A stretch of DNA of 52,566 bases, the filler included, from Porpidia crustulata (lineage: Eukaryota), in assembly GCA_964255105.1 (NCBI GenBank). It is 4 parts of 4 records of this genome, joined end to end, with 100 filler letters (N's around TTAATTAATTAA, not from the genome) between each part and the next. Parts side by side here need not be neighbours in the genome. Positions count along the whole stretch, not along the records: positions 13,206 to 26,287 come from CAXUWE010000462.1; 3 more parts are not named here. The stretch is one strand, 5' to 3'. Positions 2,814-39,527 of this stretch are shown here, one piece after another; position 1 is the stretch's first letter; every line of letters begins with the position of its first letter. The notes under the pieces are model-generated. The model was not told the origin of the DNA. It made no database searches and saw nothing but the letters and a program-made list of their open reading frames with translations. A program made the translations under genes and the position numbers.

Positions 2814-3377
2814 AGCTGCTCAGAGGAGAAGCAATCCATTTGAAGCTTCCAGTGCCATATCGAGGACAGATTTTGGGAGACATGAAGTCTTCTGAACCAG
2901 CGCGGCTGTGTGTGACCCCTCGGGAGGCCTTGAACGAAATATAGGGCGTAGTCGATCTTGATTGGTCAACTTCTCTACTTACAGAAGTTGAGATGCAAAT
3001 GGGGGGCGCAGCTTCCGAAAATCAGCACTAGACGCACCTCTCGAATTTTTGCAATTTTCGAGATGTTGAGTAACTTTATCTTCTCTCGCTGAAATGAATT
3101 AACAACAGAATTCAATTAGACTACTAGGCTTTGTAGCTTCTAAACAACCACCATCCAGATTTGGATCGATACATCTCTTGCTTCTCCATTATTACTATTT
3201 TATGACTATATACATCGATATGTGCAGCATCTTGACATCGTTTCTCGTACAAATATTTTCCGAGAAGGATTATCCAAATTATGGTAGCCAACTCGTCGCT
3301 TTTTCATTCCTGTGCAGGCCACTGTACCCAAATACTAACGGCTAGCCTCCCATACCCAAGCGTCTCGCGGCAAATTC

Positions 3378-5131: not shown

Positions 5132-6284
5132 TTTAGTGACCAAGGAGTAGTGACGAGAAGAGCTCCATATTGGGAATCCGTGAGCTTTGTACCTCACGCT
5201 CAAGCCCAGCACAGATCCTTGTTATTAGTGCCGGAGTCTCTTCATCTCTAGGATGTCGGCACTCGTTAGGCCAGGCGTTCCGAGGTCATGATGGACCCTA
5301 TTCGAGCTGGAAAGTCGCCTGCGGCTGTATTTCTCCGTCATTGAAGCCATTAGCTCTGGTAAATCGAGAATCCCCGCAGAATGCAGTTGCTGGCGAACTG
5401 CTAGCCAATTATTAGTAGTGTGGGCTGGCGTCATTAATAATCGCTCCAATGTGTATTTGGAGGCTGGCACGCTGGTAATTTGCGCTTAGACTAACTCGAA
5501 TCGGCTTAAATCTGGACGAGGGGAAGCTCATTATCCACATCCTCGGCCCATGGACTCGATGTGGATATGTCGACAATTAGAATGCGGAGCGCAAGGCATT
5601 ACCACGTTTACCATAGTTCAGAAGTCGTTAAAGTGTTTGCGTGTTCTGAAGTGGGTAGGTCGACGAAGCGAACATCAATTCCAATTGCTGTTAATCGCCG
5701 ACAGGTACTTGAAATGACTCGCTTAGGTTTATACCCTAGACTTCAAGGGTGTTTTGTCGGAGGGCTTTCTTTGAAATCCCCGAAATTTTCCTGTCTCATT
5801 TCCATTTTTCTATCAGAACTCAGGAGGATTCTTACTGGATCAGTATTCGACAAGTGGAAAGCTTACAAGTCGAATGGCTGTCTTAGAAATCTATCAACAT
5901 CCTTAAAAAATAATCAAATTGAACCTATCTCTCATCCTCGCTTTCTAAGCCTTGAGCATCAAACTCGCAACTGAGGAGACCTTTTACTGAGGGTCTATAT
6001 GACAGACTTGCTCTTGTCAGTCCGTGACAATAGGTAGCAATGCCGCGTTAAAATCATGAGGGCATCGGTCGCCCAGCTTGCCGACCGGTTTCTTACTTTC
6101 TCCTAACGGTTGATCGGAGAATCAACCGCTTGGTTAAATCTGCCAGGTACCCCTCAAATCATTAAGCCCTGGCTTCGCGATGGTCGCTTCAGAAGACCCA
6201 TGCAATGCCGTACATAAATACGTCTGGTTGCTCAGTTCCTGACCATCTGCTGTACTGATATCCTTTGCTACTTTCGAGTCCAGA

Positions 6285-9497: not shown

Positions 9498-12400
9498 ATG
9501 GCTCCAGATCACTTGTGAGTACTGCCTGAGCTCAATTGGCTGCCCTTCACGAGTTGCAGCCACTAACTGTGTAGAAAATTCGATCTCAATGGCGACGATC
9601 CCGACAGAAAGAAGTCGGCAGATGGGAGAGGCCAATCCATCTACGACGCCAAACGCGATGTCACTGGAGATGAATACGCCGACTTGGTTCGCTACATAAG
9701 TACTCACTATGAAGGACCTCGAAGAAAGTCGGTCGTGTCGCTCGGCGATGATAAGGCAAAGAAGAGACCCTGGTATGCGTTCTGGAAAAGCCGTGGTAAG
9801 ACCGGAGCTGGCGAAGATGGTTTCGAGATGCCCGACGATTGGGTCACGACAACCATTCGCCAGGGTCTCAGCAGCAACGACGTGGAGAGCAGACGGCGGC
9901 ATACGTATGATCATCCATTGCCCAGTCTCATTAATTGAACGCTGACCTTTTAATAGCGGCTTCAACGAGCTTGTACGTTGTGTTTCAATGTGGTTCGCAA
10001 CGAAAGCAATACTAACTATTGAATAGACAACGGAAAAGGAAAACATGTTTCTCAAGGTAATTTAAATAGTAACAGGGTTTTGATGCTGAATGCTCATATT
10101 GCTTTTAGTTCTTGTCCTACTTTACTGGTCCTATTCTCTACGGTAGGCGCTGTTTAGATACCCGCAATGGGCACTCTTTATAACACGTGATCTAGTCATG
10201 GAACTTGCTGTACTCCTTGCAGCCGGTCTGCGCGACTGGATCGATTTCGGTGTCATCATTGCTATCCTTCTCCTCAACGCTACTGTCGGATGGTATCAAG
10301 AAAAGCAGGCTGCCGACGTTGTCGCAAGTTTGAAAGGTGACATCGCAATGAGAGCCACCGTGGTTCGTGACGGTGCAGAACACGACATCAAGGCCAGGGA
10401 GCTCGTCCCTGGAGACATAGTAAGGATGTTGCCTTCCAGGTCAACTAGCTACATCAACTTACAACTGATAGGTCATCATCGAAGAAGGTCAAGTTGTTCC
10501 TGCTGATGCTCGTTTGATATGCGCCTACGATAACCCCGAGGCCTTCCCCGAGTACGAAGAATTAATGCGTCAAGAAAACAACGAACCGTCGGAGAAAAAA
10601 GATGAAGAAGACGACGACGAGGATGACAAACACCACGGAACGTCGTTGGTGGCGTGCGACCAGTCTGCCATTACCGGAGAATCTCTCGCTGTGGACAAGT
10701 TTATGGGTGATACTGTGTACTACACCACTGGATGCAAGCGTGGAAAGGCTTTCGGCGTCGTTATCGCACCAGCTAAAACATCTTTCGTTGGTCGCACCGC
10801 TTCTTTGGTCCAGGGCGCAAAGGACCAAGGTCACTTCAAGGCGATCATGAACTCTATCGGTACCGCGTTGCTCGTCGTCGTTGTGGCCTGGATTCTCATT
10901 TCTTGGATCGGCGGCTTTTACCACCACCTCAAACTTGCTACTCCACAGGACAGCTCGACTAACCTGCTCCATTACGCTCTTATTCTTTTGATTGTTGGTG
11001 TTCCTGTCGGTCTGCCAGTTGTTACCACGACCACTTTGGCTGTCGGAGCTGCCTATTTGGCAAAGGAGAAGGCTATCGTTCAAAAGCTTACGGCCATCGA
11101 ATCTCTTGCTGGTGTCGACGTACTTTGCTCTGACAAGACCGGTACGCTTACCGCCAATCAATTGAGTATACGTGACCCGTACGTTGCAGAAGGCGTGGAC
11201 GTTAATTGGATGATGGCCGTTGCTGCTCTCGCCTCTTCGCATAACATCAAATCATTGGACCCTATCGACAAGGTCACAATCCTCACCCTGAAGCGATTTC
11301 CCAAGGCACGCGAAATATTGGAGCAAGGCTGGAAGACTGAGAGCTTCACCCCATTCGACCCTGTTTCCAAACGTATTACGGCTGTCGCTACTTGTGACGG
11401 AGTTCGGTATACCTGCGCCAAGGGTGCTCCCAAGGCTATTCTTCAGCTTTCAAATTGCAGCGTAGAAACGTCGGACCTGTTCAAGACTAAAGCGGCCGAA
11501 TTCGCTCGCCGTGGTTTCCGCTCGCTTGGTGTTGCCGTCAAGAAGAACAATGAGGATTGGGAACTGCTCGGAATGCTGTCCATGTTCGACCCTCCTCGCG
11601 AAGATACGGCGCAAACTATTGCCGAGGCTCAATTCCTCGGTCTCCAGGTTAAGATGCTTACGGGTGATGCCATTGCCATTGCCAAGGAGACCTGTAAGAT
11701 GTTGGCGTTGGGTACCAAGGTTTACAACTCGGACAGACTGATCCATGGAGGCCTCAGCGGTGTAACGCAACATGACTTGGTTGAACGCGCCGATGGTTTC
11801 GCCGAAGTTTTTCCCGAACACAAGTATCAAGTCGTCGAGATGATTCAACAAAGAGGTCATTTGACCGCCATGACTGGCGATGGTGTCAACGATGCGCCTT
11901 CTCTCAAGAAATCTGACTGTGGTATTGCCGTCGAGGGTGCCTCGGAAGCTGCTCAAGCTGCTGCAGATATTGTTTTCCTCGCGCCTGGTTTGAGTACCAT
12001 TGTCAGTGCCATCAAGATTGCCCGACAAATTTTCCAACGTATGAAGGCGTATATTCAATACCGTATTGCCCTCTGTTTCCATTTGGAAATTTACTTGGTC
12101 ACATCCATGGTCATTATCAATGAAACCCTCCGTGTCGATCTCGTCGTCTTCCTCGCCTTGTTTGCTGATTTGGCGACAATTGCCGTTGCATATGACAATG
12201 CTCACTACGAGGCACGTCCCGTCGAATGGCAACTTCCTAAGATCTGGATCATCTCTGTCACTCTGGGTATACTACTCGCTCTTGCGACTTGGATCATGCG
12301 TGGTGCACTCTTCCTTCCCAACGGTGGTATCCTCCAAAACTTCGGTAACGTGCAGGAAATGCTATTCTTGGAAATCTCGTTGACTGAGAATTGGCTCATC

Positions 12401-12876
12401 TTCGTCACTCGTGGTGGTAAGACCTGGCCTTCATGGCAATTGGTATTTGCCATTTTCGGTGTTGATGTGTTGGCCACCTTGTTCTGTGTCTTTGGATGGA
12501 TCTCGGGTCCCAGCTACCTGACCAACCCTCGTGACCGTGCTCAAGTCATCGACAATAACGGACGTACCAGCGTTGTCACCGCTGTCGTCATCTGGGCTTA
12601 CTCCATTGGCGTGACTATTGTCATTGCGATTGTCTACTTCCTCCTCAATAAGATCGAATGGCTCGACAACCTCGGCCGCAAGACCCGCAGCCGTAGCGAC
12701 ACCAAGATCGGTAAGCATCAATTCTTGTATCAACTCTTGATTTTCACTAATATGATTACCCAGAAAACATCCTCGGCCACCTCTCCAAGATCGCTGTCCA
12801 ACACGAGACAGACAAGGAGGGCAACTCCCGCTGGCACCTTGCCCCCAAGGCCACCGAGGCCGAGATGGACGATTAA
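9498..12876 (+). CDS. PMA1: Plasma membrane H+-ATPase (P3A type), 8 exons
   Basis: Motifs DQSAITGES, CSDKTGTLT (phosphorylated Asp), KGAP, DPPR, MLTGD and TGDGVNDAPSLKK. Exons 9498-9514, 9575-9904, 9957-9972, 10027-10056, 10109-10142, 10196-10419, 10472-12710 and 12764-12876 splice in frame with GT-AG introns. Confidence 0.97.
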
Positions 12877-13105
12877 GGAAGCCGGTTGGGATTTCCTTGC
12901 TGTTTCTGGATAAAAGGATTTTATCAATGGGGGGAGGGAGAAGGGGTATGTGCGGGCAGATTTCCATCGAGTTCGGACGTGTAATTCCCTAGTATTTCTA
13001 CTACAAAACTTCGGGTACATAGATGTTTGCAATACATGCACGTAGCTGACTGAATTTTTCCTTGTTCCTATCAATTCTGATCCGATAATTATTGAGTATC
13101 GCTCC

Positions 13106-13205
13106 NNNNNNNNNNNNNNNNNNNNNNNNNNNNNNNNNNNNNNNNNNNNTTAATTAATTAANNNNNNNNNNNNNNNNNNNNNNNNNNNNNNNNNNNNNNN
13201 NNNNN
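13106..13205. other. Artificial contig spacer (N44-TTAATTAATTAA-N44)
   Basis: Exactly 100 nt, with a central palindrome giving stops in all six frames; identical to the other two spacers. Confidence 0.98.
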
Positions 13206-13930
13206 TGAGTTGAGCACGAAGCTCCTATCTAAGGAAATGACCATCATTATATAGACATAGTAAATTCGTGCTAAAAGCCCATGCTCGGTATGCTATGGAT
13301 GCTATGTCCCATAGCATAGCTAGCATCCCTAGCATAATAAGATATACGCTTCTTCCGGGTATATTTGAAACTGCCTAGTGAGCCGTGCTAACAACTTAGT
13401 GCTACGAAGCAAAATTAAAAAATGAAGTTCGGTAACGTGAAATAAAATGCTTGATAGCAAACGACAGTCAATCAACCTTAAACGTTAACGTATTATATAA
13501 ATGAGGTGCTCGATGAGATGTTTAATGAAGTGCTTAATGTTACGATCAGACCTTCCCCAACATCCCCAGCAGCCCACCGGATCAAGGTGGTGCCGAGCCT
13601 AATGAGGCCTAGCGTCGCTCTAGCATTGCCAATTTCCCATCGCCCCAAATACCGCTCTGTATCCGGATTTCCTTTCTTCCTTAGCATTTATTTCTTCGTT
13701 GATTTACCCCCATAGCTAGGTAGTTAGGAGGCCCCTAACACTTAATGAGATATATTAACGAAATAAACGAGACGTACAAAGGAATAGAGTGTAAAATAAA
13801 TGTATCGTAAAATATTAATATACGTAAATCAGTTTTTACTGCATATATACGATCTTTTCATAATAACAGTATTTTTAAGAATACAGTTTCAGCTTTAATA
13901 CGAAAACTACGTTTTAATACGATATTCATG
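13206..13930. repeat. AT-rich, TpA-rich degenerate repeat or transposon relic (RIP-like)
   Basis: Visibly more AT-rich than its flanks, with abundant TA dinucleotides (e.g. aaaatattaatatacgtaaat, tagcatagctagcat), no credible ORF, and located at a contig end. Element family not recognisable. Confidence 0.55.
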
Positions 13931-14436
13931 ATGTTACCGCCTAAAGACGATACGCGCAGGTGATACCGTCATGCTACCGTAATTCAGACTGGTAGCACTC
14001 CACTAAGGTACCTATCCACTCACCGCATCACTCCTTCACCGGCCCAAAGAAGTGTACAGATGGTCAATCGTGTCTATTATCTGTTCAGGCATGACACTAC
14101 GGGCTTGGGACATATTTCTTAAATGTCTGCTGGGGTTATTTCCGCACGACTGCGGTAATAGGCACCTCTCCTTCCATGTAACGCCAACGTCGTCGCCTAA
14201 AATTTGCACTAGTCTTGAGGGAATTTCCAGAGCGGGCTTAGATACAATGGTCTTCTTCCTGCATCATGAAGGCACGAAAGTCTACTCGGGTCGCCTACCA
14301 AGCTTTTCTCTAGCTCGTGCCCGCCTGCTCGAAGAGTAGCAGATGCAACGATATTACAAATAGCAGCTAGCGTTTTGACAAACCCGCTGCCTTCCTTAGC
14401 TGAGCTAGATATGCCGGTGAGCACCATCTACTGAAC

Positions 14437-16642
14437 CTATCGACTACCATGTTCGCATTCCACCCAAGACTTCAGCAATTCTTCGTCATCCTCGAACCTG
14501 CTGGCCGATTTAGGATCGCATCGTTGCAGTGGGTAGAGGCTCGTGATTAAAACCCTCAAGCGACCTTTCGGTCCACCAACGAGATTTTCGAGTAATTTAG
14601 CAAAGTCATATAGCTTCGGAGCTCCTTGACGATGGCTGAATGCGTAAACGTCAATTCGGTCGATAACCTAGAATATTGGTTGCATTGAATCATCGATCTG
14701 GCCCGTGGGAGTGACAAGGGCTGTTAGTGGATCTCTGATATCAGAGCTGCCTGATGGAAAATTGTCCAAAAGACAGCGCATGAGGGAGCCCAGTCCTTCG
14801 AGACTCCATTTCGGTGTTCCGGGCGCGGTACCTGCCAATGACTTAAGAGCTTTATGCTTCAGTACTGGCAGAGGATGACGAACGAGGAGTTGATATATCG
14901 CCTCTTTCAGATGAGTGATGGTGGTGCGCTGGGTATCTGTACCAGCGACATGTGGAAGACCAGTCTGATGCATGGAGTGAAGAATTACGGGGGCCCTTTC
15001 ACTGAGTGGTAACTCTTGGGGGGCTTGGCCATATTTACAAAGAGTGTTGACGATTTCAAGCGCTATGTTTGAGATACCTAGGTCTCTAGGATTGACAGAG
15101 TTGATCCAGATTAGCTTCTTGAGCTTGCTCCTTGGTAAGGGGGCAGAAGAAAGCCAGTCGATCAGAGGGGGCTTTTCCATCCTTGCTCGGCGTTCTTGGC
15201 TCTGCGCTGTCGTTTGACATAATGCATAGCTGATCTGAGTCGATGCAAAGGACCAAAGTGCATCTGAATCATATTCCATGTGGACTAAATGATTCTGGAT
15301 GCGGCTGAGAGCTTTCTGACGCTTCGCATTTTCGCTATCTGATATCGAGAAAATTGTGCATTAGCTGAAGCCGCCTCACAATCTAAGAAGGGCATAATCA
15401 TGAAGTGTAGCTCACCTTCAACTTTGAGAGATGTCTTTTGTAGCTGCTTTGCAACAGAGTCCAACTCCTGGCTCAGTTTGTCCGTTTTCCCTTGGAGCTC
15501 CCCGTTTGTCTCTTGAAGCTTGTCCGTTTTCTATCCATTCTTTTGTGTTACAAGCCGAGTCATTCGGATCTCGGAGGCCATTCCGATCGCGCCTTGGTCG
15601 CGGATGTCTCTGGATTTCTGGTCTACATTTCCCAGAAATTTGCTGAACTCGGAATCAGATGCTGAAGAGAGTAGCCGTTCTAAGATTTAGAAATTATCCA
15701 CGTTAGGCACCCAAATCTACATCATAGGAAGTGTCAAGGTGCTTTAGATACCTAAGGAGCCCCTCCATCCAGAATGACGGTAATACAGGAAAACTTTTGG
15801 CAGAAAATTCATCACTTCGGCATAGAGCTCTGCGATGAGACTCATCATTTGGTCAGTTGGATAGAGTTCACCATATCCATCCAGCTTGGGGAGCGACTTC
15901 TCAAGAGCGATAAGAGACTGTCATGTAGACTCATGGTCAGCAACCACTTCTCGCCAACTGAAAGATATGAAGGGTAGACCTTATGGATCAGTTCATCCGT
16001 GAGCTGCTTCTTGGCAATGATCTGTCCATCCAAGTCAGATACATACTGTCTCACTTTTCTAAATTTCAAGCCCTTGTCACACCTCGAAACATGTGCTTGG
16101 AGCGAATGGTCGGGCTTACAGTAACAGCTACGGAACATACCCCCCAAATCACGCCGGCCGATCCATGAGGATCTGCTCCTGTGACCGCACCGACAATAGG
16201 GGAGTAGGTTCTAGTGAAACTTTCGAAGCTCACCAGATTCTTCAGGACTTTGTTTCTGGTCCGCGTCCTTCGCTTTTCTTCGTGCTTGCCTTCCAACTTC
16301 TTGACGTATTCGATAAATTCTGGAGGTGATTTTATACTTCTTTGAACTTGTATCTCTTCGGCTTCAAGCTTCAACTCAGAGAGGGTTCGTTCCCACTGAT
16401 CCCGAGCGTTCGTGATACGCTGAGCTAGTCTATCACCAACGACATCAGAACATCATATCTTACAATGAGGTATAGGAAGGAAGAGAGGAGGCCTTAGCTC
16501 ACCGCTCAATATTTTCAGAACTCTGTCTCTCATACCAACGGCTCAACGAAGTGCTTGTGAGTTCTGCGGGGGTTCGATTCTTCGATTCTCTTTCTTCTTG
16601 GCCGTTGATTGCGGTGACGATCGTGCTTGATGTAGTCTCCAT
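14437..16642 (-). pseudogene. DUF7708-like N-terminal helical domain + coiled coil + degenerate NACHT-like domain (~607 codons, 6 exons) with two in-frame TAG codons
   Basis: Exons 16642-16503, 16429-16120, 16021-15980, 15917-15752, 15679-15416 and 15338-14437 are phase-consistent (1824 nt). N-terminal motifs DPHGSAGVIWG and LPKLDGYGELYPTDQMMSLIAELYAEVMNFL; NACHT-like IDWLSS..LIWINS, IYQLL, IF*VIDRID and LRVLITS. Stops at 15531-15533 and 14668-14670. The exon 3 donor (GTCTAC) is weak. Confidence 0.72.
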
Positions 16643-17784
16643 TATAATTGAGTAAGATCAGAGCCCAAGTTACATATGAAGTTGTAAGAAATCCATTAAA
16701 AACGTATTTTTCTAAGATCTGACTGGACTGCCATTGAGGCTGAGCGAGACACAACAGAATTCGGCGCTTAGGCGCTGCATATCTCCAACGACGGTAGTCA
16801 GAATTAGTGATATCAGTAAGTTTATTGTATTCGGACTCAAGGTGAATGCGAGTCTGGCGTCTGCTGGGAACTGCGGACGCCAAAACAGCTTCTTGCCTGT
16901 TGCGCGTCCGTTTTTTGGGTTACACCACCTTCGGCAACACCGCAAACTTTACTACCGACCTCAAAGAGCCTAGAATTCGCGAAGGAGGATTTTGAATGGC
17001 GCCTGTTATTTCCTCGATGTCACCAATCGCTCTCTGGAGAGTTGAACATTTGCGACACTGGGATGTTTGATTACTGATGAAACCCTGGCCACCTAGTCAA
17101 TAGGTCGACCTGTCAAACATCCATTGAGCTGTCAATTAATAGCCTGTGTGCCGGAGTATTTCCTATAATAAAACTCACCGAGGATTGGAAGATAATCATA
17201 TCATAGTGGTGCCCCCCCTTTCAGAAGTCATCTCTATCGATACCACCGTAGTTTTGGGGACCAAAAGTGCTGCATGCATGTACGACTTGCCAACCAGAAT
17301 CGACACACCTTACTCTGCATCGCTGATGTACTGGCAATTTCAAGACAAGGGAACACTTAGCCGAAGGTAACCTTTCAGCTCGATTGTGTATTACGACTGT
17401 TTTACACCGCTTTACCATTGGAGCTACGTTGACGTCGAAGGACAGGTCGCGACGTAGATGCGCGTGCTACAATTACGGCGAAGGCGATGCGCGGTCAAAA
17501 GAACCATATCTAGCCAATAATACCCATGTATCATCGAGAAGCTGTTATTCTTAGGATATAGCTTGCTTTCAATCGTTTCACTCCTTGGGAGAGAGTAGGG
17601 TGTATTCAATTTGGATGTCAATGAGGCTCTCATGTTGCCTAATTTAGCCGCAAGGCCCGATATTTAAAGAAGGTCCAAGTTCATCAATTGATATCCAGTT
17701 CTTACCCACCGATTCCACCTATCTTCTCGAAGCTGCTCTTAGAAACACGATCGGCTCAACAGATCGAGCACCGAAGACTAACCC

Positions 17785-20617
17785 ATGGCAAACGAGCGCT
17801 CCGTCAGCAAAGTAGGGGCAACTGGAACGGAGGCCGATGTTGGTGAACCCATGGATGTAGAAGCCAAAAGAATTTCAACCAAAAAAAAAGAAACAATGTC
17901 CTCCGAAGTGCACGACAGCGCATTGGATTGTAAGACCGAAGTCTTGGGGACTTCTGTTAGCACTGCACTGGACAGAGCAGGTATCATGAGGCCTCTAATA
18001 CCAAGCCAAGAAATTGCTCTTCTCGAAATGCAATATATTGAGCTACTCGAAAAAAAGGTTGCGCGGCTGAAGGCAGAGGAACATGGAGATGAATTATTGG
18101 ATAGTGGTACGGAGAATTACGAAGAGGAACACAAAGTAAGTCTTCATATGGCCCAAATAGTGTTTAATTGATATACTATTTCAAAATAGTCAAGAATCAA
18201 GTACAGGCAGGAGAGTCGCCGAAAGCTGGCTATCAGACTTACTATATCTAGGGTACCGCCAAATACCCTGAACCAGAAGATCCGCCAAACAAAGATTCGG
18301 AAGACCAATCTGCAAGCCAGCCAGAGCAAAAGCCAGAGCCAACAATCGACGAAGGACGGGTACGCTATTGTGAGCTAAAACAGGATAGTTACGGTCAATA
18401 CTCCGACCATACAGTTGAAAAGCCGAATAGCACGAACACATCCGCAGAAGCCCAGAGTGGAGAATACGCTATCTCTTGGCGTTTACCAAAGGGGGTGCAA
18501 AACGAGAAAAACGAAAACCCGTGCTACTGATCGAGTCTCATGCTCTGAGAGAAGCCTTAAAAGAAGTTGCAGTTGGTAACCCAAGCGTGATCTTTGACAC
18601 TAAGGTTGTAGCAATGCCTTGGCCATATGATCTCATATATCACAAAGAACAAAGACTTCGCGAACTTGCGGAGGCCGATGCATCAAAGAGGGAAGACATC
18701 GAGATACTTCTCAGAGAAGTTGAACAGCGGCAAGCTACTGAGCGCAAAGACGCCGAGGAGTTGAGCAAGAACGGGCAAGTTACATACGACTTGCTCTGGA
18801 CCCTTTTCTACCAGGGGGACTTGGTCGTCCAGAAGGACATAATGCGAAAAGAGCAGGCCTCAATTATTGGTCCTCAACTTGGCCTGATTTCGGATGATTC
18901 TGAGCAATATACCATAGATCTCTGCAGTGTGGATTATGATGGAACGGATTTCACCTACCTCGATAATCAGGTTACTATAGAATGGTTTAAAGGAGCAAAG
19001 GCTATTACTGATCTGGCAGTTATACCCTTCCAAAAATGGAAAGGCCTTGATGGTGAGTTTTCCAAGTCAATAGGCATTCATTCCCAAAGTAATAATTATC
19101 GACGCGTAGGATCTGCACCGGAAGCGTTGAGAGAGCGCCTGATTAGAAGAGGTCGCAAATTTGAGGACTTGTGTAACGATCAATATGGAGGAAGCTTCCG
19201 ACAGTATGGGGGCCTTATTGTGGATGAGGGTGCGGACGAGATGCTTCGCGACGATGACGACGATACAGTAGGTGGAGAACTACATAGATTGCATGGGCAT
19301 AGAGCTTACCAAACTCGGTACATCAGACACACGGATCGGCAAAAATCAAGTCGACAACCGTCAGGCTCTCCGAACCCAGGACTAAAGACGGGGCGGTGAG
19401 TTTCCTTCCAAAACTTTCGCAACTCGATGTTTCTGGAAGCTTATTGGCTAGGGAAAACTCGAATCTGGATCACTCGTCATTGTCGGTACGTTAGCAGCTT
19501 TTCTCACAACTATCACATCAAAATCATTAAGCTCCGTCTCTCAGATCACGAGGCCTACTTCAACTATGCCAAGAAACCCCTGAAGCTCGGTAGCCAATCT
19601 CCCCTGTCTGAGCCTTGCGATTGCTCGTCATGTGTTGAAGTCCGAAATGAATTTATACATGACCTTCCAGATGCGCTTGACGAAAGAAAGAAACGCTCGA
19701 AACTGACCGATACGCAATGCTTACTGTGTCCTCCACGCGTTTTTGGTTTTGCGATCAGGAGCAAAATGTGGATGCAGTTATTAGTCGACAATGTCGATAT
19801 TGTTGACCAGAAGTCAAAAGAAAAACCATACGAAAAGCTCGAACTGGACATGAAGAGTAAAGAAATGCTCAAGACGCTGGTTATTCAACACTCGAAAGGT
19901 ACGGGCCCTATCGACGATATCATTCCTGGTAAAGGTGATGGTCTTATCGTGCTACTTCACGGACCTCCTGGCGTTGGTAAAACCTTGACGGCCGAAAGTC
20001 TAGCTAAGCTGTCAGGCAAACCCCTATACACTATCAGCATGACGGACGTTGGCACTTCACCTCTAGTCGTGGGAAAAAACCTTGTTCGCGTGTTCGAATT
20101 AGCGACTCACTGGAACGCTTTACTGCTATTTGATGAAGCCGATATATTCTTGGAAACTCGATCTCTTATGGATCTCCGCAGGAACAGCTTGGTTTCAGTC
20201 CTTCTCCGGATTCTGGAATACTTCCGGGGCATTCTATTCCTAACTTCAAATCGAGTCAAGACCTTTGACGAGGCTTTCCAATCTCGTATCAACGTGGCCG
20301 TGCAATACCGAGAACTTACAGAGCCTCAGCGCAAGAAAATTTGGTATTTATGGCTAGAAAAGGCCAAGGATGAGATAGATGACCGCAGTGAATTTGATGA
20401 TGCGCTCGAAGAAGGAGGTGACTTATCCAGAACCGAGTTGAATGGAAGGCAGATTCGGAACGTTTTCAGAGGTGCAATGTCACTGGCCCACGCACGGCCT
20501 TTAGGGGAGCGGAAGCTGACGATCAAGGACGTCGAGACGGTGCTCAAGCGAACAGTCGAATTTCAAACGTACATGCTGCAAAACCAAGAGGTAGCAAGGA
20601 GACAGGGTATTCGTTAG
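17785..20617 (+). CDS. Fungal AAA+ ATPase with DUF7025-like N-terminal region; probable 1-nt frameshift near 18490-18520
   Basis: VTYDLLWTLF, LRERLIRRGRKF, LLCPPRVFGF, DDIIPGKGDGLIVLLHGPPGVGKTLTAE (Walker A), LLFDEADIFL (Walker B), LRILEYFRGILFLTSNRV..FDEAFQSRI and lid LNGRQIRN. Likely introns 18136-18251, 19053-19109, 19268-19326, 19396-19451 and 19486-19544. Confidence 0.88.
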
Positions 20618-22120
20618 ATCTGTCGAGGTTGGGGGCAAAATGTCGGATTTTTGTGGATGGAATCCAGGGCTTTTTCATGCAGAAAATTTGCTTCTTTGTT
20701 ATCGTGATAGCAGTGGTATGTATCTATAGACTAGTTGTACTCTTATTTGTTCGCTTTGCCACCGCTGCATTCGATGTCTCGACTAGCAGTCAAGTCGAGC
20801 TTATAACCAGCTTGGCAGTAGAAAGCACAAGACCGAATTTTGCTCTCCCCTGCAGTCATAAAAGTTCTGAGGATCAATGCCATCCCCTCTTGCTTCAACT
20901 TTCAATCCATTGTATGATCGCTAAAAACAAGAATAGCAGCAGTAGCACGTTGCCTCAAGATCTCCCAAAATTGAGAGAGTGGGGTTGAAGCTTCATAGAA
21001 GCAGAGCCTATTACGATAACAACAAGACCGCGGCAAACAGGTAGGCGTATATATTGAGGATCGAAGGCAGCAGAAAGGGTCCTTTATAGGGAGAACATTG
21101 ATGCGGGCACAGCATTGGCTCTACGGTGACGAGGCTTCAGGTTTGGAGTCAAGGGAGCCAAGTCCCGGTCCCCGCCGGAGTCATTGCTTGAATCGGACGA
21201 AATCGACATTGTATGAGCGGCTCATGGGCAAGAGAGCATGAATGCAAAAGCGGACGATAGTTGAGTTGAGTGAGCAGCGCCGTAGCAGATTTTGAGCAGC
21301 GAGTGAGATGGGAGAAAGGCGCCAGAGTAGAGCAGTGGGAGCTTGTTGAACTGACTGGGGAGGGCAAGCAGATTTTGACAGGCAGGCAGCCCCAAAGTAG
21401 ATACGTGCCTACTCGGATTATCGATTCAGTGATTTCTGTTCCAGGAAGAATATTGTGAGATGTTTAGTATAGACTGACACCGCACGCGCTTTTCTTTTTC
21501 CATTAGGATTCCACAAAGAACAGGATGGTACGGTCGACATCGCCTGGACTTCTTAGTACATCTTCGTAAATCAATAGCAACTCACTAAATCGCCATCGAC
21601 TGTCAAGTGACCACCAGTCCAATAGATAATCCTGTAGTAGATAGGTAATTAATTGTTAGGGAGCTGTTGTGACGTTCGGGGCGCACCAAAACCAAGAGAT
21701 CGGCAGAACTGTCGTGTCTAGGCCTAGAACTTGCCCGCTGTCTGTATTAATTGTCTGTCCGCTTTCTTGCCGCTGCAACGTGAAACCCCGTCAGACTTAT
21801 CAAAACTTTCAACATCAGCCCCAGTTGTGCGCTGAGCCACATCTTGTTTACACGTTTCGCGCTGACATTGTTCCAACGATCGTATTCATAAGTCACTCGT
21901 CTCAGACTTCCAGAAGATGGTTGCTTTGTTTCAACGTCATTGGCGGTAGCTACATTTCTTTTGATTGGACCAACTAAGCTCGTTTCCGCGTCAGAATCTC
22001 TTCCTTGATGCCACCGCGCAAGAACATCCAGCCATAATAGCGGGACGGTCAGCAGGGGATATACACAAGAAGCCTTGACTGTGGGACTATTTGAGGCTCC
22101 ACCTCGACCTTAGGCGCAAC

Positions 22121-25100
22121 ATGTTCCATCGCAAGAGAGCGCAGTCGAACCCGGTAAGTTTTCATGCTCTGCTACATACATCTCCTTGCCCATCAAGCAA
22201 TCCACTCACAGCTATCCTACAGCCTTTAAAAACCCCTCCAACTGCGGCAGCGTCAACAGCAGCTGTACAGGCTTTTCTTGCAAGCCGTGCCTCCAATGCA
22301 AGTCTTTCGAACGCAGCTGCAGCTGCAGCTCTCCGGTCCCACACTACAACCCCAACACCAGTCGGAGATATACAAACAAAACGTATGCAGCGGAGGGGAT
22401 CTACATCTTCTAATGGGAGCGCAAGCCCCATTGTACGTGGGGGACTACAGCGGCAAAACAGTTCTGGGTCGATGACAGAGCGGTCCTTCAGGGATCCCTC
22501 ACCAAATCGAAAGACTTCAGCAAGTGTACATACCGAGGATCCTCCGCCAGTACCTGCCCTTCCCAGAAGTTACATGTCTCCACCACCACCACCAGTGCCG
22601 GCAAAATCAGGTCGAAGGGCAGCAAGTGTTGAGCCCCCCGAAAGAGTTGTCTCACCTCCGCCTAGACCTAATGGGCGAGGTGTAAGTTTAGACAGAGGGC
22701 CTGGTGTGATGCCAGGTAAAGGAGACATCCGAAGCTTTTTCAAGCCGACTGTTGCGAAGCTAGATGAGGAACGCTCTCAGAGCAGGGAATCAGTGAATTT
22801 CTCGCGGCCCATGAGTCCGCGAAATTCGCCGCCTACTTCACCATTGGTTAACAAACCACCGCAATCGCCCTTGAGCCAACCCTTAACTACTGCGCAGGCT
22901 TCAGCAATGAAGAGTGAAACGCAGAAATTGCCAGAAGGCGAAGCGCAGAATATGGCATACCGGATACAAGAGACTGCAACCCGTCCCGTAAAGAAGAAGA
23001 AGAAAGCGATCACCCAAGATTTGAGAGAAGGTAGCCACTTGACGGCTGGTGGAAGTGGTATAAGGACCACAGGATCTGCGTTGGAGACCACTCCCAAACG
23101 GCAACCCCTAAGCGCCACATCAACTCCCTCACCTACAGCTACCATATCTCAGCCAGCTGGGCTCAATGACGCAGTGAATACTGCTCCAAGAAGAAAGAAG
23201 AAGAAGGCAATTTCTGCAGCAGGAGCTCAAACAGCGTACCCATCTGATACAGATTCTATTGTTTCCGATGTTAGCAGCTCGGCCGACCGACCTCGAAACT
23301 ACAATACCAGGGCAGGAAGACTATTGGCGAAACAGCCTTCAATTGTAAGGGAAGATCGAGAAGCTGAGGAGAAAGAGGATCGACCTGTTCTAAGTAAGAA
23401 GACGCTGAACAGTGTAACGCAAGGTGGCAATGTTGGCACAGGGACAGCTCCTAATACGTCAAAGCCACTTACAAATGGTCAACAGCACAAGAAATCTGTA
23501 AGCCAACCAGAAACTTTAGTACCGCCGGCCAAGGCCATCTCGCTAGATACAGGATCTACAAATCGACATCAATCACTAAGCCCAGCACGAGCTGCTCACT
23601 TTTCCTCTCAACCAATACTCAATACCCCAGACGAGAAAAAACACCAACCGCCAGCTCGCTCAGTGTCACCTGCAAAGTCTGCTCTGAAACCTTCTCTGTC
23701 ATCACGTGGTGCTTCGCCAGTAGGCTTTATGCCTGGAAGCTGGAATCGCTCTCATGGGAAAGCGGCAAGCGAGGCATCAGACACAACATCCGTCATCTCA
23801 GATGATGGGCTAAAGCCTGCCTCTAGGAAGAAAAGTGTACGTGTCAGCTTCGATGATGAGCCAATCGCTGTTGGCCGTGCCGCTAGCCCACCTACAAGCC
23901 CTGATTCCCCCCTAATCTTGAGCCCACAGAATAACCACAATTCGAACAAAGCGTGGTATACCTCTGGACGTGAACGAAAGACCGGGGCTGGGGGATCTGA
24001 TTCAGATCAAGAAAGTATCATGAAACCGATCCCTGTACTCCCCTCCTTTGGTAGTGTTCGCGGACGGAATGATCAGGCTAGGCTAGATGTCGATCAGGCC
24101 CACCCGGGACAGGGACTTGGTGAGACGCATGCCTCTACTGATCAAGTAGTTGGAAATGTGCTTCAACAGGATTTCCAAAGTAAAGGCAGTGGCCCCGGTA
24201 TCGATGCACCTCCGCACGCATCAAACGACCCATTACCCCCCGAGGTCACGTCCGTTGAAGGCAGTGGTTACCACTCAGACACTGATGATAGTGCGTATAG
24301 CGACAACGGGGGTGAATCGCACAACTCGCCAGCTACCTTGGCCTCCTCGCTGTCAAGCAATGGGACCGCCCTAGGTCAGAAATTTGCACCCATCGACAGT
24401 ACCGTTGAGGAAGAGTCAATGCAAGTAGATAATACCTTGGTGCCGTTAATAGCCGTCCAGCCAGCCACTCCAGGCACAGAGGGTCCCGAAGTGGATCAAG
24501 AAGACTGGTTCGGGATGCCAGGTGGTTTCCCTGCCTCGGGAGAGATCTCGCATCCCCAAGACCAATCTCCAGGGCCAATTGTGGAGCATCATGCAACCGA
24601 ACCAACTCCCGCGAATATAGGAATTGCAGAGCCTGAGCCAGAAACCGCACATCATGAACATAAATCTCCAGTTGTAGGGGAAGTCGCTGAAGGCTTACGG
24701 ATTCAAATTGAGCATCATCGAGATGACGAATCAGAAGATTCAGGTAGCAGTATCTACAGCGATGCTGCAGAGGACCTGTCAGATGTTGAAGGCGACGGAT
24801 TTGGATCTATCAATGCTATTGTTGAGAGCCCTGTCATTAAGCCAACTGTACCCGCCACAAATCCACCCCAAAGCCCCAGCACGCGAGCGGTGGCTGCTAG
24901 ATCTAATCGACCTAGTCCTCTGGCTAGGAATGATAGCGAGCAATCTGAGCCTGCACAAGAGGAAGGCTGGGATCGAGCGCAGCAATATTGGTCTGGGCTC
25001 AGTCAGAGTCGTAAGCAGCAGGCGGAGAACGCAGCTGCTCCAGGGGCAGATATTTCGACTGAACCCAAACCGAAACCAAAGAAGAAGAAAAAGACTATGA

Positions 25101-26287
25101 CACAAAAACCTCAAACTTCGCAAGACTCGAACCGAGAAGTCCCATTCCCACCTTGGCCTGATAAGCAGTATCGAGATGAAATGGCAAAGCCCAACCCGTC
25201 AATCGTACCTGCACCTGCAATGAAAAAGTCAATGCGAGCTGTCCCACCTGAGCCTGCCCAGGAGACGCACATGCGCTCATCAATGCGAAACAGTGCACCT
25301 CCTTTGAAATCGTCTATGCGGGCATCGCAGCCGTCGGCCTCTCCTGAGCCCAGGGGTGCGCTGCAGAAGAAACATCGTCCAATTTCCGCAGTAGCCATGG
25401 TTGACTACAATAAGCAACAGAACAAGTCAACGCCAAACCATGATCGTGCTGCGTCAATGGGTATTCAGCCATCTTCTCTCACGCCTGTGCTTGCTCAGCC
25501 GAAAAAGAAGAAGACGACAATGCGCCGTGTCGTTTCCAATGGAAGCGACTCGTCAAGCAGCTTCAAAAAAGCACGACCTTCGGCAACTTCTGACAGCAAC
25601 CACTATTCCATGAAGCGATCAATGCGGCCTGGATCCGTAGATTCTCGACCGCAGTCAGACCATTTCCGTTCTTTCAGCGCTCGCTCGCCATCGCCAAGTG
25701 GCCCTGCCAGGAGACCTTTTAGCTCCGTGGGGCCCAGCACAGCTGGCCCGAGCATGCGAACATCCATGCGAGGGTCGATGGACTCGGGAAAACAGAACCG
25801 CACAAAGTCACCGATCCGCTCCCTTGGGTTTGGCAAGGGTTCCAAACCGACGCCGGCAGCATCGAAACCCAAATCACGCTTCTCCAGCCGCTTCGGCGAC
25901 TCCAGTGATGAGGACGACGGACCCCGAATGATCCGCAGCCGTTTCGCCGATTCCAGCGACGAAGATGAACCCATTGGCCTTACACCTGTGCGCGGCATTC
26001 CCCGCCGCATTGATGAAGGCGACTCCACCGACCTTGACGATAGCTCCGCCGAGAATTCTCCCAGAACTCCGCGACCGAAATCCACAAACGCTGCTCCCCC
26101 TTCCAAACTTGAAGGCGCTGCCCTCGCTACCGGCTCCCTCCGCAGCGGCGCCCCTCCAGAACTACGCGCAGAAAACGAGAAGAAGAAACGTTCCTTCTTC
26201 GGCGGCCTCGGCAGCAAACGCCGCGACGACAGCAAAGTGCGCACGACAGACATCGACATCGCCACCCGCAGGGACCCACCCCTCGAC
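22121..26287 (+). CDS. Large intrinsically disordered Ser/Pro/Lys-rich hypothetical protein, 3'-truncated by the contig end; intron 22154-22222
   Basis: ORF of about 1.37k codons. Start MFHRKRAQSNP, GTAAGT...CTCAC...CAG intron, then LSNAAAAAALRS, poly-Lys patches, KSVRVSF and repeated MRxSMR motifs. Confidence 0.8.
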
Positions 26288-26387
26288 NNNNNNNNNNNNN
26301 NNNNNNNNNNNNNNNNNNNNNNNNNNNNNNNTTAATTAATTAANNNNNNNNNNNNNNNNNNNNNNNNNNNNNNNNNNNNNNNNNNNN
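26288..26387. other. Artificial contig spacer (N44-TTAATTAATTAA-N44)
   Basis: Same 100-nt construct as 13106-13205. Confidence 0.98.
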
Positions 26388-39427: not shown

Positions 39428-39527
39428 NNNNNNNNNNNNNNNNNNNNNNNNNNNNNNNNNNNNNNNNNNNNTTAATTAATTAANNNNNNNNNNNNNNNNN
39501 NNNNNNNNNNNNNNNNNNNNNNNNNNN
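39428..39527. other. Artificial contig spacer (N44-TTAATTAATTAA-N44)
   Basis: Same 100-nt construct as the other two spacers. Confidence 0.98.

Follow-up and report, generated by a model that had tools for sequence, protein, structure and literature searches.

Organization of the locus

The window, a 52,566-nt stretch of DNA from Porpidia crustulata, consists of four pieces joined by N-linkers, and only the piece from 13206 to 26287 carries the locus. It contains two divergently transcribed genes (Table 1) whose start codons are separated by 1142 nt, in line with the 1.14 kb estimated in the initial annotation. The interval marked there, 14437-20617, is bounded precisely by the stop codons of the two genes. 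The spliced model of the left gene keeps one frame, with GT..AG introns of 62-98 nt, and in tblastn its product aligns colinearly, over all parts, with P0003, a homolog of 614 aa. The repeat relic already noted beside the pair was recovered at the end of the piece: the summed contig depth is 1128-5721 at 13206-13800 versus 12.9 for the gene pair, and the region 13606-14005 has a GC content of 0.37 and RIP-like dinucleotide indices (TpA/ApT 1.21, (CpA+TpG)/(ApC+GpT) 0.71). On the same piece, the gene next to the pair has an intact open frame of 1418 codons. An independently built contig (run X1, 8352 nt, depth 12.9) revealed 0 differences over positions 13897-22000; all sequence evidence, including this contig, probably represents one sample.

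Table 1. Features of the gene pair and its surroundings (positions in the window).
Feature	Position	Strand	Details and basis
High-copy AT-rich repeat relic, end of assembly piece	13206..14005	.	depth, GC, RIP-like indices; linker N-run ends at 13205
Left gene, pseudogene here	14437..16642	-	Goodbye/DUF7708-type helical domain, coiled coil and P-loop-less NPHP3_N/NACHT-like domain; 607 codons; ATG 16642-16640, stop 14437-14439; tblastn, spliced model
Left gene exons (six)	16642-16503, 16429-16120, 16021-15980, 15917-15752, 15679-15416, 15338-14437	-	spliced model
Walker-B-like to sensor-1-like strand	14533..14667	-	VIDRID (14667-14650) to LRVLITSLY (14559-14533); part matching Pfam NPHP3_N; profile match, alignment
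In-frame TAG, codon 531	14668..14670	-	directly before Walker-B-like IDRID; alignment A1, tblastn
Degenerate P-loop position	15058..15114	-	family motif IIW-x-x-S-x4-D-x-T-I-S-H-I, no Gly-rich loop, no Lys; alignment, P0003 model
In-frame TAG, codon 269	15531..15533	-	coiled-coil exon; spliced model, tblastn; base same in independent contig
Divergent intergenic region, presumed shared promoter	16643..17784	.	1142 nt; start codon positions
Right gene, DUF7025-type AAA+ ATPase	17785..20617	+	ATG 17785-17787, stop 20615-20617; tblastn with P0027, DNA, translations, Pfam
Right gene coding segments	17785-18135, 18252-18491, (frame break), 18500-19267, 19327-19395, 19452-19485, 19545-20617	+	
Frame break, 8 nt	18492..18499	+	tblastn, translations; independent contig identical
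DUF7025 domain	18752..19036	+	Pfam PF22942, E 5.1e-19, 68.9 bits, residues 108-202 of ORF 18431-19399
AAA domain and AAA_lid_13	19949..20581	+	AAA 19949-20302 (Pfam 61.9 bits), AAA_lid_13 20315-20581 (40.3 bits)
Walker A	19961-19984	+	GPPGVGKT
Walker B	20123-20143	+	ends DEAD

A P-loop-less family with a NACHT-like fold

From its sequence, the left product had been described as a helical N-terminal domain, a coiled coil and a NACHT-like fold with neither sensor repeats nor GxxxxGK[ST], and a comparison with its homologs bears this description out. The window's own left-gene pieces gave no Pfam match above threshold, and the read-through reached 13.4 bits against NPHP3_N (profile positions 96-163). 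Three left homologs (P0002, P0005 and P0011) pass the gathering threshold of this profile with 28.6-30.5 bits, the matches running only from profile position 57, 90 or 118 to 164, and DUF7708 was detected in P0003 (E 9.4e-15) and P0021 (E 4.7e-14). The Atlas look-alikes were NPHP3_N clusters for the C-terminal part (score 0.96) and DUF7708/Goodbye/NACHT_N clusters for the N-terminal part (score 0.95). In the AlphaFold2 model of P0003, two long helices (195-252, 258-307) follow a helical N-terminal region, and the C-terminal domain is of the alpha/beta type, with a pLDDT of about 90; about 110 residues between the N-terminal domain and the nucleotide-binding domain (NBD) form a coiled coil. The C-terminal domain matches the Cdc6/Orc1 fold (Z 12.4, rmsd 3.4, 172 residues aligned) and further AAA+/STAND folds, namely Avs3 (Z 11.7), CED-4 (Z 9.3) and Apaf-1 (Z 9.2), which together with the profile matches confirms the STAND/NACHT similarity. 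For the N-terminal domain, the match to MLKL (Z 8.4 over 99 residues) comes from a low-pLDDT region and lies below the caution level of the tool for helical bundles; the model gives a weak hint of a four-helix-bundle-like domain.

At the P-loop position the P0003 model has a strand (368-373), a loop and a helix (381-407), and none of the 14 aligned members of the left family contains GxxxxGK[ST], while S97, D234, R235 and D237 are invariant across the same 14. Judged from this alignment, the whole family has lost the P-loop and carries a conserved motif in its place. The sensor-1 Arg, read by eye, is retained in two of the 14 rows (P0011 and P0023). The left product lacks a winged helix and an ARC part; WD40, ANK and TPR repeats are absent as well, since the protein ends about 35 residues past the sensor-1 strand. 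With Walker A, winged-helix/ARC and sensor repeats absent and the sensor-1 Arg mostly lost, the left protein should not be a nucleotide switch on its own. The family is tiny: a search of 1.84 billion representative proteins gave 23 matches at E<=1e-3. As intact homologs (614 and 685 aa) share the identical truncated architecture, the C-terminal end and the conserved replacement motifs, we regard the short P-loop-less form as a maintained protein family and not as debris. Most likely, the left gene derives from a fungal NLR and retained the N-terminal helical domain, the coiled coil and the core NPHP3_N/NACHT-type nucleotide-binding fold, and the family appears to have swapped the Walker A loop for another conserved motif.

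The AAA+ partner and its subclade

As stated in the initial annotation, both Walker motifs of the right product are intact, and sensor-1 Asn and SRH Arg are also present. PDB sequence and fold matches to Afg2, Msp1 and p97 (Z 14.8 for p97 D1; Foldseek E 7e-9 for Msp1) assign it to the classic-clade AAA proteins. DUF7025 AAA proteins are numerous (2144 at E<=1e-20 among 8000 candidates scored), and a search with the right gene resulted in five top matches of 851-449 bits followed by the next at 334 bits. In the tree, the right gene groups with five others in one clade (SH-aLRT 99, stem 0.44). This six-member subclade is marked by an N-terminal RVRY...AISWR segment of its own and by G-[IL]-R at the end of its C-terminal tail; a CxCxxC motif is common to this subclade and its sister clade. 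Read by eye from alignment A5, the AAA family lacks the pore-loop-1 aromatic, at whose position D-[VIL]-G-[TS] stands, and the missing aromatic means that a threading mechanism is not assured. In the literature we found no member of the DUF7025/AAA_lid_13 family with a tested function.

Lesions in both genes

Three lesions, which the initial annotation did not mention, interrupt the pair (Table 1). The TAG at codon 531 of the left gene falls on a near-invariant Trp (W231, kept in at least 90% of the rows of alignment A1). In the right gene, the frame break separates the conserved ...YAISWRLPK (frame +3) from the conserved ...KPVLLIESHALREAL (frame +2); the 8-nt gap is too small for an intron, and the flanking segments share one frame in all four orthologs (P0027, P0028, P0029 and P0031).

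Linkage in other fungi

A full-length left homolog is present in two named genomes, and in both of them the adjacent gene ranks first of more than 2000 AAA matches, so that the expected neighborhood of homologs was indeed found. In the Pycnora praestabilis MAG, the left homolog P0003 (KAI9814173.1, M1827_003339) and the AAA protein P0027 (KAI9814172.1, M1827_003338) are encoded on a 338,334-bp contig, and in Rasamsonia byssochlamydoides P0021 (KAL1967135.1, VTN77DRAFT_3426) and P0028 (KAL1967134.1, VTN77DRAFT_3425) on a 344,163-bp contig; adjacency is defined here by consecutive locus tags and accessions, not by orientation or spacing. Pycnora and Rasamsonia belong to different fungal classes. 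A third co-location is likely, since the ENA contigs recorded for P0172 (left family) and P0030 (AAA subclade) have the same length, 34,743 bp. Both the left and the AAA tree group the window with Pycnora and ENA with Rasamsonia in the sole quartet testable, and to this extent the predicted congruence holds. Two named genomes and one contig-length match are too few to separate common descent from selection for linkage.

No left-family partner was identified for the AAA-subclade member P0031/P0181 (Exophiala xenobiotica / Lithohypha guttulata records), and none of 19 metagenome loci has a subclade-type AAA gene beside the left-family sequence. Fourteen of these loci represent one orthologous locus with a 5'-truncated left-gene relic, in-frame stops (L001) or frame breaks and at most 10 kb of flank, and two (L017 and L018) contain only the last exon. 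Two others (L015 and L016) have N-terminal exons and at most 748 bp upstream, and thus carry no information on an AAA neighbor either way.

Discussion

At least two distant fungi also have direct neighbors of this kind, an indication that the two genes work together. We lean towards a two-gene module, conserved but patchy in its distribution among filamentous ascomycetes and recently inactivated here, in which the AAA+ partner would act in trans. That the left and right genes form a conserved linked unit is very probable, and a functional coupling of their products has slightly better than an even chance. An output in cell death or immunity is a tentative suggestion that we consider rather doubtful. 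We found no published description of a pairing of a pseudo-NLR with a DUF7025 AAA+ protein. The initial annotation had proposed a unit in which an AAA+ motor is combined with an inactive STAND-like scaffold; the conserved linkage supports the unit, but with disabling lesions in both of its genes the pair in the window is itself no active module.

Mechanistically, the AAA+ partner might supply in trans the ATP-dependent control that is missing from the left protein. Most likely it would remodel or restrain oligomers of the left protein, in which clustering would bring the four-helix-bundle-like N-terminal domain into action, comparable to the control that the NOD of an NLR exerts on its own N-terminal executioner domain. 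The genes would have stayed linked, probably via a shared divergent promoter, and seem to have decayed together in this genome.

Mere proximity has to be weighed against this model. It is possible, but on the whole unlikely, that linkage reflects a shared ancestral neighborhood or an accessory or mobile block, perhaps with a bidirectional promoter, and that the products do not interact. The high-copy RIP-like repeat at the contig end, the patchy left family that leaves relics, some of them without an AAA neighbor, the mere two to three further instances and the missing common motif (BLASTP of left and AAA proteins, best E 0.81) would fit this scenario. However, immediate adjacency is retained in the Pycnora and Rasamsonia records, both families are rare and restricted (23 left representatives and six AAA-subclade members), and both partners are damaged whereas the adjacent long ORF is intact; such joint decay would be expected if one partner were useless without the other. 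A chance encounter of a decayed NLR fragment with one AAA gene out of a very large family is extremely improbable. The size of the DUF7025 AAA family, the pseudogene state of the left gene and the lack of above-threshold Pfam matches in its own pieces would be compatible with it, but the intact 614- and 685-aa homologs speak against a fragment, and the adjacency in both named genomes, with a chance of roughly 2 in 10,000 per genome (an uncomputed estimate), already contradicts this explanation.

There is also a small chance that the pair is still functional and that the lesions are sequence errors or are bypassed. A GT..AG interval (18360-18430) would join the two right-gene frames, both genes are otherwise colinear with their orthologs at 44-73% identity without other breaks, and the sequence evidence probably stems from a single sample. 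Nevertheless, the independently built contig has the same letters at all three lesions, and the escape splice would drop a 48-residue segment conserved in four of four orthologs. Neither TAG in the left gene can be removed by an in-frame intron, one of them replaces the near-invariant Trp, and as the terminal stop of the left gene is also TAG, this codon is read as stop here. On balance, we assume a recent inactivation of the module in this genome.

Several known systems resemble parts of this arrangement. Fungal NLRs of the NWD/HET-E-type STAND group share the N-terminal family (DUF7708/Goodbye/NACHT_N), NPHP3_N over the second half of the NOD and the AAA+/STAND fold. The left family differs in its lack of Walker A, winged-helix/ARC and WD40/ANK/TPR, in the sensor-1 Arg, in the coiled coil before the NBD and in ending right past the NBD core. 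Plants possess head-to-head sensor/helper NLR pairs such as RGA4/RGA5 and RRS1/RPS4. These are likewise divergent with a short shared intergenic region, functions are split, and one partner is independent of its own P-loop; here, the second partner is a classic-clade AAA+ protein with a DUF7025 N-domain instead of an NLR, and sensor repeats or integrated decoys are not recognisable in either partner. The concept of such plant pairs is taken up in PMC12258605, where head-to-head NLR-NLR pairs are given as rare in Sordariales (13 of 225 two-NLR clusters). Adjacent genes that encode an executioner-type helical domain and its controller apart are also found in the NWD2/HET-S type, in which a fungal NLR and the neighboring effector gene are connected by amyloid signaling, as outlined in PMC9815663. 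Here, in contrast, the partners have no common motif, the executioner-like domain is on the NOD-like protein itself, and the controller would be an AAA+ ATPase and not an NLR.

In bacterial CBASS, the AAA+ remodeller Trip13 holds a HORMA signaling scaffold off. This may serve as a working analogy only, with a dedicated AAA+ ATPase encoded beside a non-enzymatic scaffold that would determine the output through its state of assembly; there is no homology past the general AAA+ fold (6p8v is a generic AAA match), and organisms, partner folds and output differ. The right product itself shares Pfam domains, ATPase motifs and fold with the DUF7025/AAA_lid_13 family and with Msp1/ATAD1, Afg2/SPATA5, p97/Cdc48 and Rix7/NVL, and is set apart from its DUF7025/AAA_lid_13 relatives by the segment and tail of its six-member subclade.

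Conservation of the gene pair

The initial annotation described two divergent genes, a left one for a pseudo-NACHT protein with a helical N-terminal domain, a coiled coil and a NACHT-like fold, but without repeats and without GxxxxGK[ST], and a right one for a DUF7025-type AAA+ ATPase with intact Walker A and B motifs. At the level of predicted products this pair is confirmed by the gene models, the Pfam matches and the fold matches of P0003 (M1827_003339, KAI9814173.1), the left homolog from Pycnora praestabilis. The layout of the left product agrees with the Pfam matches of its homologs, the P0003 model and VIA-align, the missing P-loop turned out to be a feature of the whole family, and both Walker motifs of the right product were located in the sequence (see table).

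A read-through search with the right gene scored 8000 candidates, of which 2144 belong to the family at E ≤ 1e-20. The five highest matches reached 851, 631, 547, 491 and 449 bits, followed by 334 bits for the next, and in a 34-row tree these five form a single clade with the window gene (SH-aLRT 99, stem 0.44), referred to here as the AAA subclade. The best two matches are M1827_003338 from a P. praestabilis MAG and VTN77DRAFT_3425 from Rasamsonia byssochlamydoides, and the sole two named full-length proteins of the left family are M1827_003339 and VTN77DRAFT_3426. In both fungi the locus tags and accessions are consecutive (KAI9814172/KAI9814173, KAL1967134/KAL1967135) and each pair lies on equally long contig records, which bears out the idea that left and AAA homologs are neighbours. 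Immediate adjacency is thus established in three genomes (window, Pycnora and Rasamsonia), and we estimate that such a neighbour would turn up by chance at about 2 in 10,000 per genome. A further co-location is probable, as an ENA contig of 34,743 bp is listed for the left-family protein P0172 as well as for P0030 of the AAA subclade; in the ENA records P0030 is found on three contigs, the longest of 34,743 bp, and the cluster of the left protein P0017 on contigs of 34,660, 34,743 and 31,321 bp.

Conserved adjacency more likely than not reflects a common function, but an ancestral gene order that was retained, or a transfer of both genes together, is a real alternative. The gene-tree comparison proposed in the initial annotation recovered the same quartet (window and Pycnora versus the ENA member and Rasamsonia) in the left and in the AAA tree, which is a weak test with four taxa. 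An AAA-subclade member is also present in records of Exophiala xenobiotica and Lithohypha guttulata, with no identifiable left partner. BLASTP of P0003 against its AAA neighbour P0027 gave a best E of 0.81, confined to low-complexity stretches and without a common motif, and a complex prediction for P0027 215-881 and P0003 290-614, run with alignments unused, without controls and on constructs omitting the left coiled coil and the conserved AAA N-terminal helix, had a score of 0.00, which speaks neither for nor against a complex. The suggestion that an inactive scaffold and an AAA+ motor act as one unit is partly upheld: the adjacency is conserved, but both window copies are damaged.

Metagenome loci with left-family sequence

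A metagenome scan with a 7-row left-family alignment as query detected 19 loci with left-family sequence. None of them carries an AAA gene of the subclade type when searched at E ≤ 1e-5, and relaxing the threshold to E ≤ 10 yields only short matches (20-44 residues), which weighs against the pairing. The fourteen loci L001-L014 have a mutual identity of 94-100% and represent one relic locus that matches the window over 14421-15531 only; stop codons interrupt the frame of the L001 relic, and a change of frame splits the match in the eight loci L007-L014. The relic neighbourhood is unrelated and includes genes for a glycosyltransferase and a sideroflexin as well as a fragment of a Tc5-type transposase. 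Only the last exon is present in L017 and L018. L015 contains an intact full-length left gene and L016 the N-terminal exons; both are uninformative on an AAA neighbour because they extend at most 748 bp upstream. In L001 the match lies at about 9826-10937 (L001 coordinates), and the relic homology stops at window position 15531, the last base of the first in-frame TAG of the left gene; the two positions may agree by chance or mark a breakpoint common to both.

Gene models and lesions of the window copies

The left gene was modeled by tblastn with the 614-aa homolog P0003 as guide, and the right gene, which is colinear with its orthologs, with P0027 (881 aa). Positions of all features are compiled in the table.

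Features of the window in the order of their position
Feature	Position	Strand	Remarks
P-type ATPase ORF (Pfam E1-E2_ATPase)	10472-12913		on another piece, so no neighbour of the pair
Three identical linkers, N44-TTAATTAATTAA-N44	13106-13205, 26288-26387, 39428-39527		window sequence
AT-rich stretch, ~0.8 kb	from 13206		start of piece
Left gene	16642-14437	-	six exons, five GT..AG introns of 62-98 nt, single frame, 607 codons; same end residue as P0003
In-frame TAG, codon 531	14670-14668	-	replaces Trp conserved in at least 90% of the family, directly before Walker-B-like IDRID
In-frame TAG, codon 269	15533-15531	-	coiled-coil exon; spliced model
Right gene	17785-20617	+	P0027 guide
Short introns of right gene	18136-18251, 19268-19326, 19396-19451, 19486-19544	+	P0027 guide
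Frame break, 8 nt	18492-18499	+	between ...YAISWRLPK (to 18491) and ...KPVLLIESHALREAL (from 18500), different frames
CxCxxC	19616-19633	+	between DUF7025 and AAA domain
LLCPPRV	19721-19741	+	between DUF7025 and AAA domain
Walker A GPPGxGKT	19961-19984	+	located in sequence
Walker B DEAD	20123-20143	+	located in sequence
Sensor-1 Asn	20240-20254	+	located in sequence
SRH Arg	20276-20290	+	located in sequence
1418-codon open frame	22079-26287	+	Ser/Pro-rich, intact, reaching linker; unlike both damaged genes

Removal of either in-frame TAG of the left gene by an intron is ruled out by phase and length, as there is no in-frame splice; the terminal stop of this gene is a TAG as well. In the right gene, the segments on both sides of the frame break lie in a single frame in all four orthologs. 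A GT..AG interval at 18360-18430 was considered as a rescue of the frame, but this splice would remove a conserved 48-residue segment and therefore the break is read as a frameshift. A contig of 8352 nt (depth 12.9) from a separate assembly is identical to the window over 13897-22000. It probably originates from the same sample as the window assembly, so that this identity makes an assembly error less likely but leaves room for a real polymorphism. RIP as origin of the lesions was rejected, as dinucleotide indices are normal throughout the gene bodies and RIP-like values are restricted to 13606-14005. A G-to-A transition accounts for the change of TGG into TAG, but this is insufficient alone to show RIP.

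With lesions in both genes beside an intact 1418-codon frame, the window pair is a recent double pseudogene. Since two lesions lie in the left gene and a single one in the right gene, the left gene may have been the first to decay.

Domain organization and fold of the left protein

The Pfam scan of the left gene in the window covered its separate exon ORFs and gave zero matches; a read-through of the last exon reached 13.4 bits (E 0.09) for NPHP3_N (PF24883), under the cutoff of 24.8. This cutoff is exceeded by the left-family proteins P0002 (28.6 bits), P0005 (30.0 bits) and P0011 (30.5 bits), in which the match is partial and confined to the latter half of the profile, beginning at position 118, 90 and 57, respectively, and ending at 164. 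P0003 stays below the cutoff with 18.8 bits, P0015 and the Rasamsonia homolog P0021 have no NPHP3_N row, and no left-family protein scanned has a match to NACHT (PF05729). At the N-terminus, DUF7708 (PF24809; cutoff 25) is clearly recognized in P0003 (55.2 bits, E 9.4e-15) and P0021 (52.9 bits, E 4.7e-14), and Goodbye (PF17109) matches weakly in P0021 only (E 0.044). We tentatively place the window gene in this Goodbye/DUF7708 family because tblastn aligns it in colinear order with residues 20-116 and 130-267 of P0003.

The AlphaFold2 model of P0003 has a mean pLDDT of 71.9, with about 90 over residues 290-614, and consists of a helical N-terminal region, long helices at 195-252 and 258-307 and a strand-loop-helix alpha/beta domain. 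Look-alikes in the ESM Atlas are NPHP3_N clusters for residues 290-614 (score 0.96) and DUF7708/Goodbye/NACHT_N clusters for residues 1-235 (0.95). With VIA-align, residues ~313-614 of the model were matched to Cdc6/Orc1 (Z 12.4, rmsd 3.4, 172 aligned), Avs3 (Z 11.7), the TPR-STAND protein 6mfv (Z 9.8), MalT (9.6), CED-4 (9.3) and Apaf-1 (9.2), and the model has the alpha/beta nucleotide-binding fold of AAA+/STAND proteins. Foldseek gave no match to the P0003 model at E ≤ 0.001 (best E ≥ 0.03), though it listed similar kinds of proteins, and in view of these weak values the fold assignment rests on VIA-align. The N-terminal region was aligned over 99 residues to the four-helix bundle of MLKL (Z 8.4) and also to the CC-R domain of NRG1.1 (Z 7.9); this likeness is a lead only, because for helical bundles the tool advises caution at values this low, and this part of the model is of low confidence. 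According to PMC9815663, Goodbye-like domains have a four-helix-bundle core in common with HeLo/MLKL and their function is open. The MLKL-like alignment of the modeled region would be consistent with this published view.

Helical and winged-helix (ARC) modules and C-terminal sensor repeats are absent: the last residue is the same in P0003 and in the window gene, some 35 residues past the sensor-1-like strand, P0021 is longer at this end by a few dozen residues, and Pfam scans of the left family revealed no repeat families.

Loss of the P-loop in the left family

The Walker A motif GxxxxGK[ST] is found in none of the 14 aligned left-family members, the window gene included. At the P-loop position, this 14-row alignment contains a conserved IIW-x-x-S-x4-D-x-T-I-S-H-I with an invariant Ser. 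The Walker-B-like motif W-[IV]-[IV]-D-R-[ILMV]-D, which forms a strand in the P0003 model (residues 535-539), has D234, R235 and D237 invariant in 14/14 rows. It is accompanied by a sensor-1-like strand LRVL-x-T-S-x-Y, in which, as judged by eye, an Arg follows T-S in just 2 of the 14 rows (P0011 and P0023). The other members end shortly past the same conserved W-x-E, some of them after an acidic insert. Because the members have a conserved replacement motif and similar ends, we regard the short nucleotide-blind form as a maintained family and not as debris. The family is tiny: of 1.84 billion representatives, 23 proteins reach E ≤ 1e-3, and the majority of these 23 are single-exon ORFs called on metagenome contigs. 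Word-indexed homolog searches with the whole of P0003 and with its residues 20-232 returned P0003 itself only.

The right protein and its relatives

Pfam recognizes DUF7025 (68.9 bits), AAA (61.9 bits) and AAA_lid_13 (40.3 bits) in this order and above all cutoffs in the right gene, and the orthologs P0027, P0028 (the AAA neighbour in Rasamsonia) and P0031 have the same order of domains. The columns of the ATPase motifs are nearly invariant in the AAA alignment (A5). Sequence matches in the PDB are Afg2/SPATA5, Msp1/ATAD1, NVL and p97, and by fold there is agreement with p97 D1 (Z 14.8) and, using Foldseek, with Msp1 (E 7e-9). Judged by these sequence and model comparisons, the right ATPase belongs to the classic AAA clade.

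Between the DUF7025 and AAA domains, CxCxxC followed by LLCPPRV occurs in the AAA subclade and its sister clade only, and the other clades in A5 are without these cysteines; the motif may be a metal site. A different feature was observed in other DUF7025 AAA+ clades, as P0046, P0093, P0049, P0125, P0085, P0084 and P0038 start with M-A-R-T-K-Q-T-A-R-K-S-T-G-G or close variants, resembling the N-terminal tail of histone H3, and one source name reads 'Putative histone H3/CENP-A, AAA+ ATPase'. Such a start points to a role linked to chromatin, or to mimicry of the H3 tail, in the clades that have it; the AAA subclade is without it. In P0132 (957 aa, from a Dothideomycetes sp. record) DUF7025 (184-275) and AAA (457-570) are followed by a WD40 beta-propeller (~656-950) where the lid would be expected. 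The three-part layout is NLR-like but built on an AAA domain, and it could also stem from a fused gene model.

Comparison with known systems and a possible mechanism

Fungal NLR-like proteins are numerous, and the mode of action is known for very few of them. The pair most resembles an NLR with the switch moved to a second gene, and its layout is like that of plant head-to-head NLR pairs. In plant sensor/helper pairs, however, both partners are NLRs, whereas here the right partner is a classic AAA and not a STAND protein, its NACHT and nSTAND rows being nothing more than sub-threshold P-loop matches, and neither partner has repeats. As the left protein lacks Walker A as well as ARC modules and repeats and the right one is not STAND, the pair falls in neither the NLR nor the paired-NLR class. 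It also differs from NLR/effector pairs of the NWD2/HET-S type, in which the partners have a terminal motif in common, because no shared signalling motif was detected by BLASTP. We found no description of a pseudo-NOD/AAA+ pairing in the literature, including the portions consulted of PMC9815663 and PMC12258605, supplements aside, and no full-text literature on DUF7025, DUF7708, PF24809, PF22942, PF23232 or AAA_lid_13.

As a speculation that we consider rather unlikely, the pair may be a 'split NLR' in which the nucleotide switch and the oligomerising scaffold-plus-executioner are encoded by two genes. The DUF7025 AAA+ protein would be an ATP-driven switch in trans, and possibly the sensor via its DUF7025 N-domain, and the P-loop-less NOD would be its target, executing via the four-helix-bundle-like Goodbye/DUF7708 domain. 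In the main and more probable reading, the AAA+ partner would supply in trans the ATP-dependent control absent from the pseudo-NOD, either by holding its oligomers apart or by driving their assembly, with the Goodbye/DUF7708 domain responsible for the output. The joint decay in the window is compatible with partners that are useless alone, and the double pseudogene also fits an easily lost accessory module. The few instances and the dead copy in the window temper the weight of the pair, and a functional link between its products is proposed as somewhat more likely than not.

A two-gene unit conserved across distant fungi nevertheless links three unknowns, the pseudo-NOD, the Goodbye-type domain and the AAA+ subclade, in a compact and testable form, and Rasamsonia byssochlamydoides, which gives at least one record its name, is a species kept in culture. 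The pair would exemplify a nucleotide-blind NOD kept under selection with a conserved replacement motif, which bears on the regulation of STAND proteins in trans, and a 'split NLR', if true, would be the first functional handle on the large and uncharacterised DUF7025 AAA+ family and on the Goodbye-like domain.

Surroundings of the pair

Genes on the two sides of a linker are not neighbours, since the 52.6-kb window concatenates four pieces of about 13 kb; the pair is located on the piece spanning 13206-26287. On this piece, the 1418-codon frame has no Pfam family at E ≤ 0.001 and an Rfam scan of 13206-22000 gave no match. A position beside a repeat relic, as stated in the initial annotation, is confirmed by the RIP-like indices at 13606-14005 and by the summed contig depth in X1, the one public sequencing run containing this locus, which is 1100-5700 for 13206-13800 versus 12.9 for both genes and the flanking single-copy DNA. 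The stretch 13206-13800 is a very high-copy element or a sequence common to another abundant organism in the sample, and in the same run it is represented by many short contigs with loose ends.
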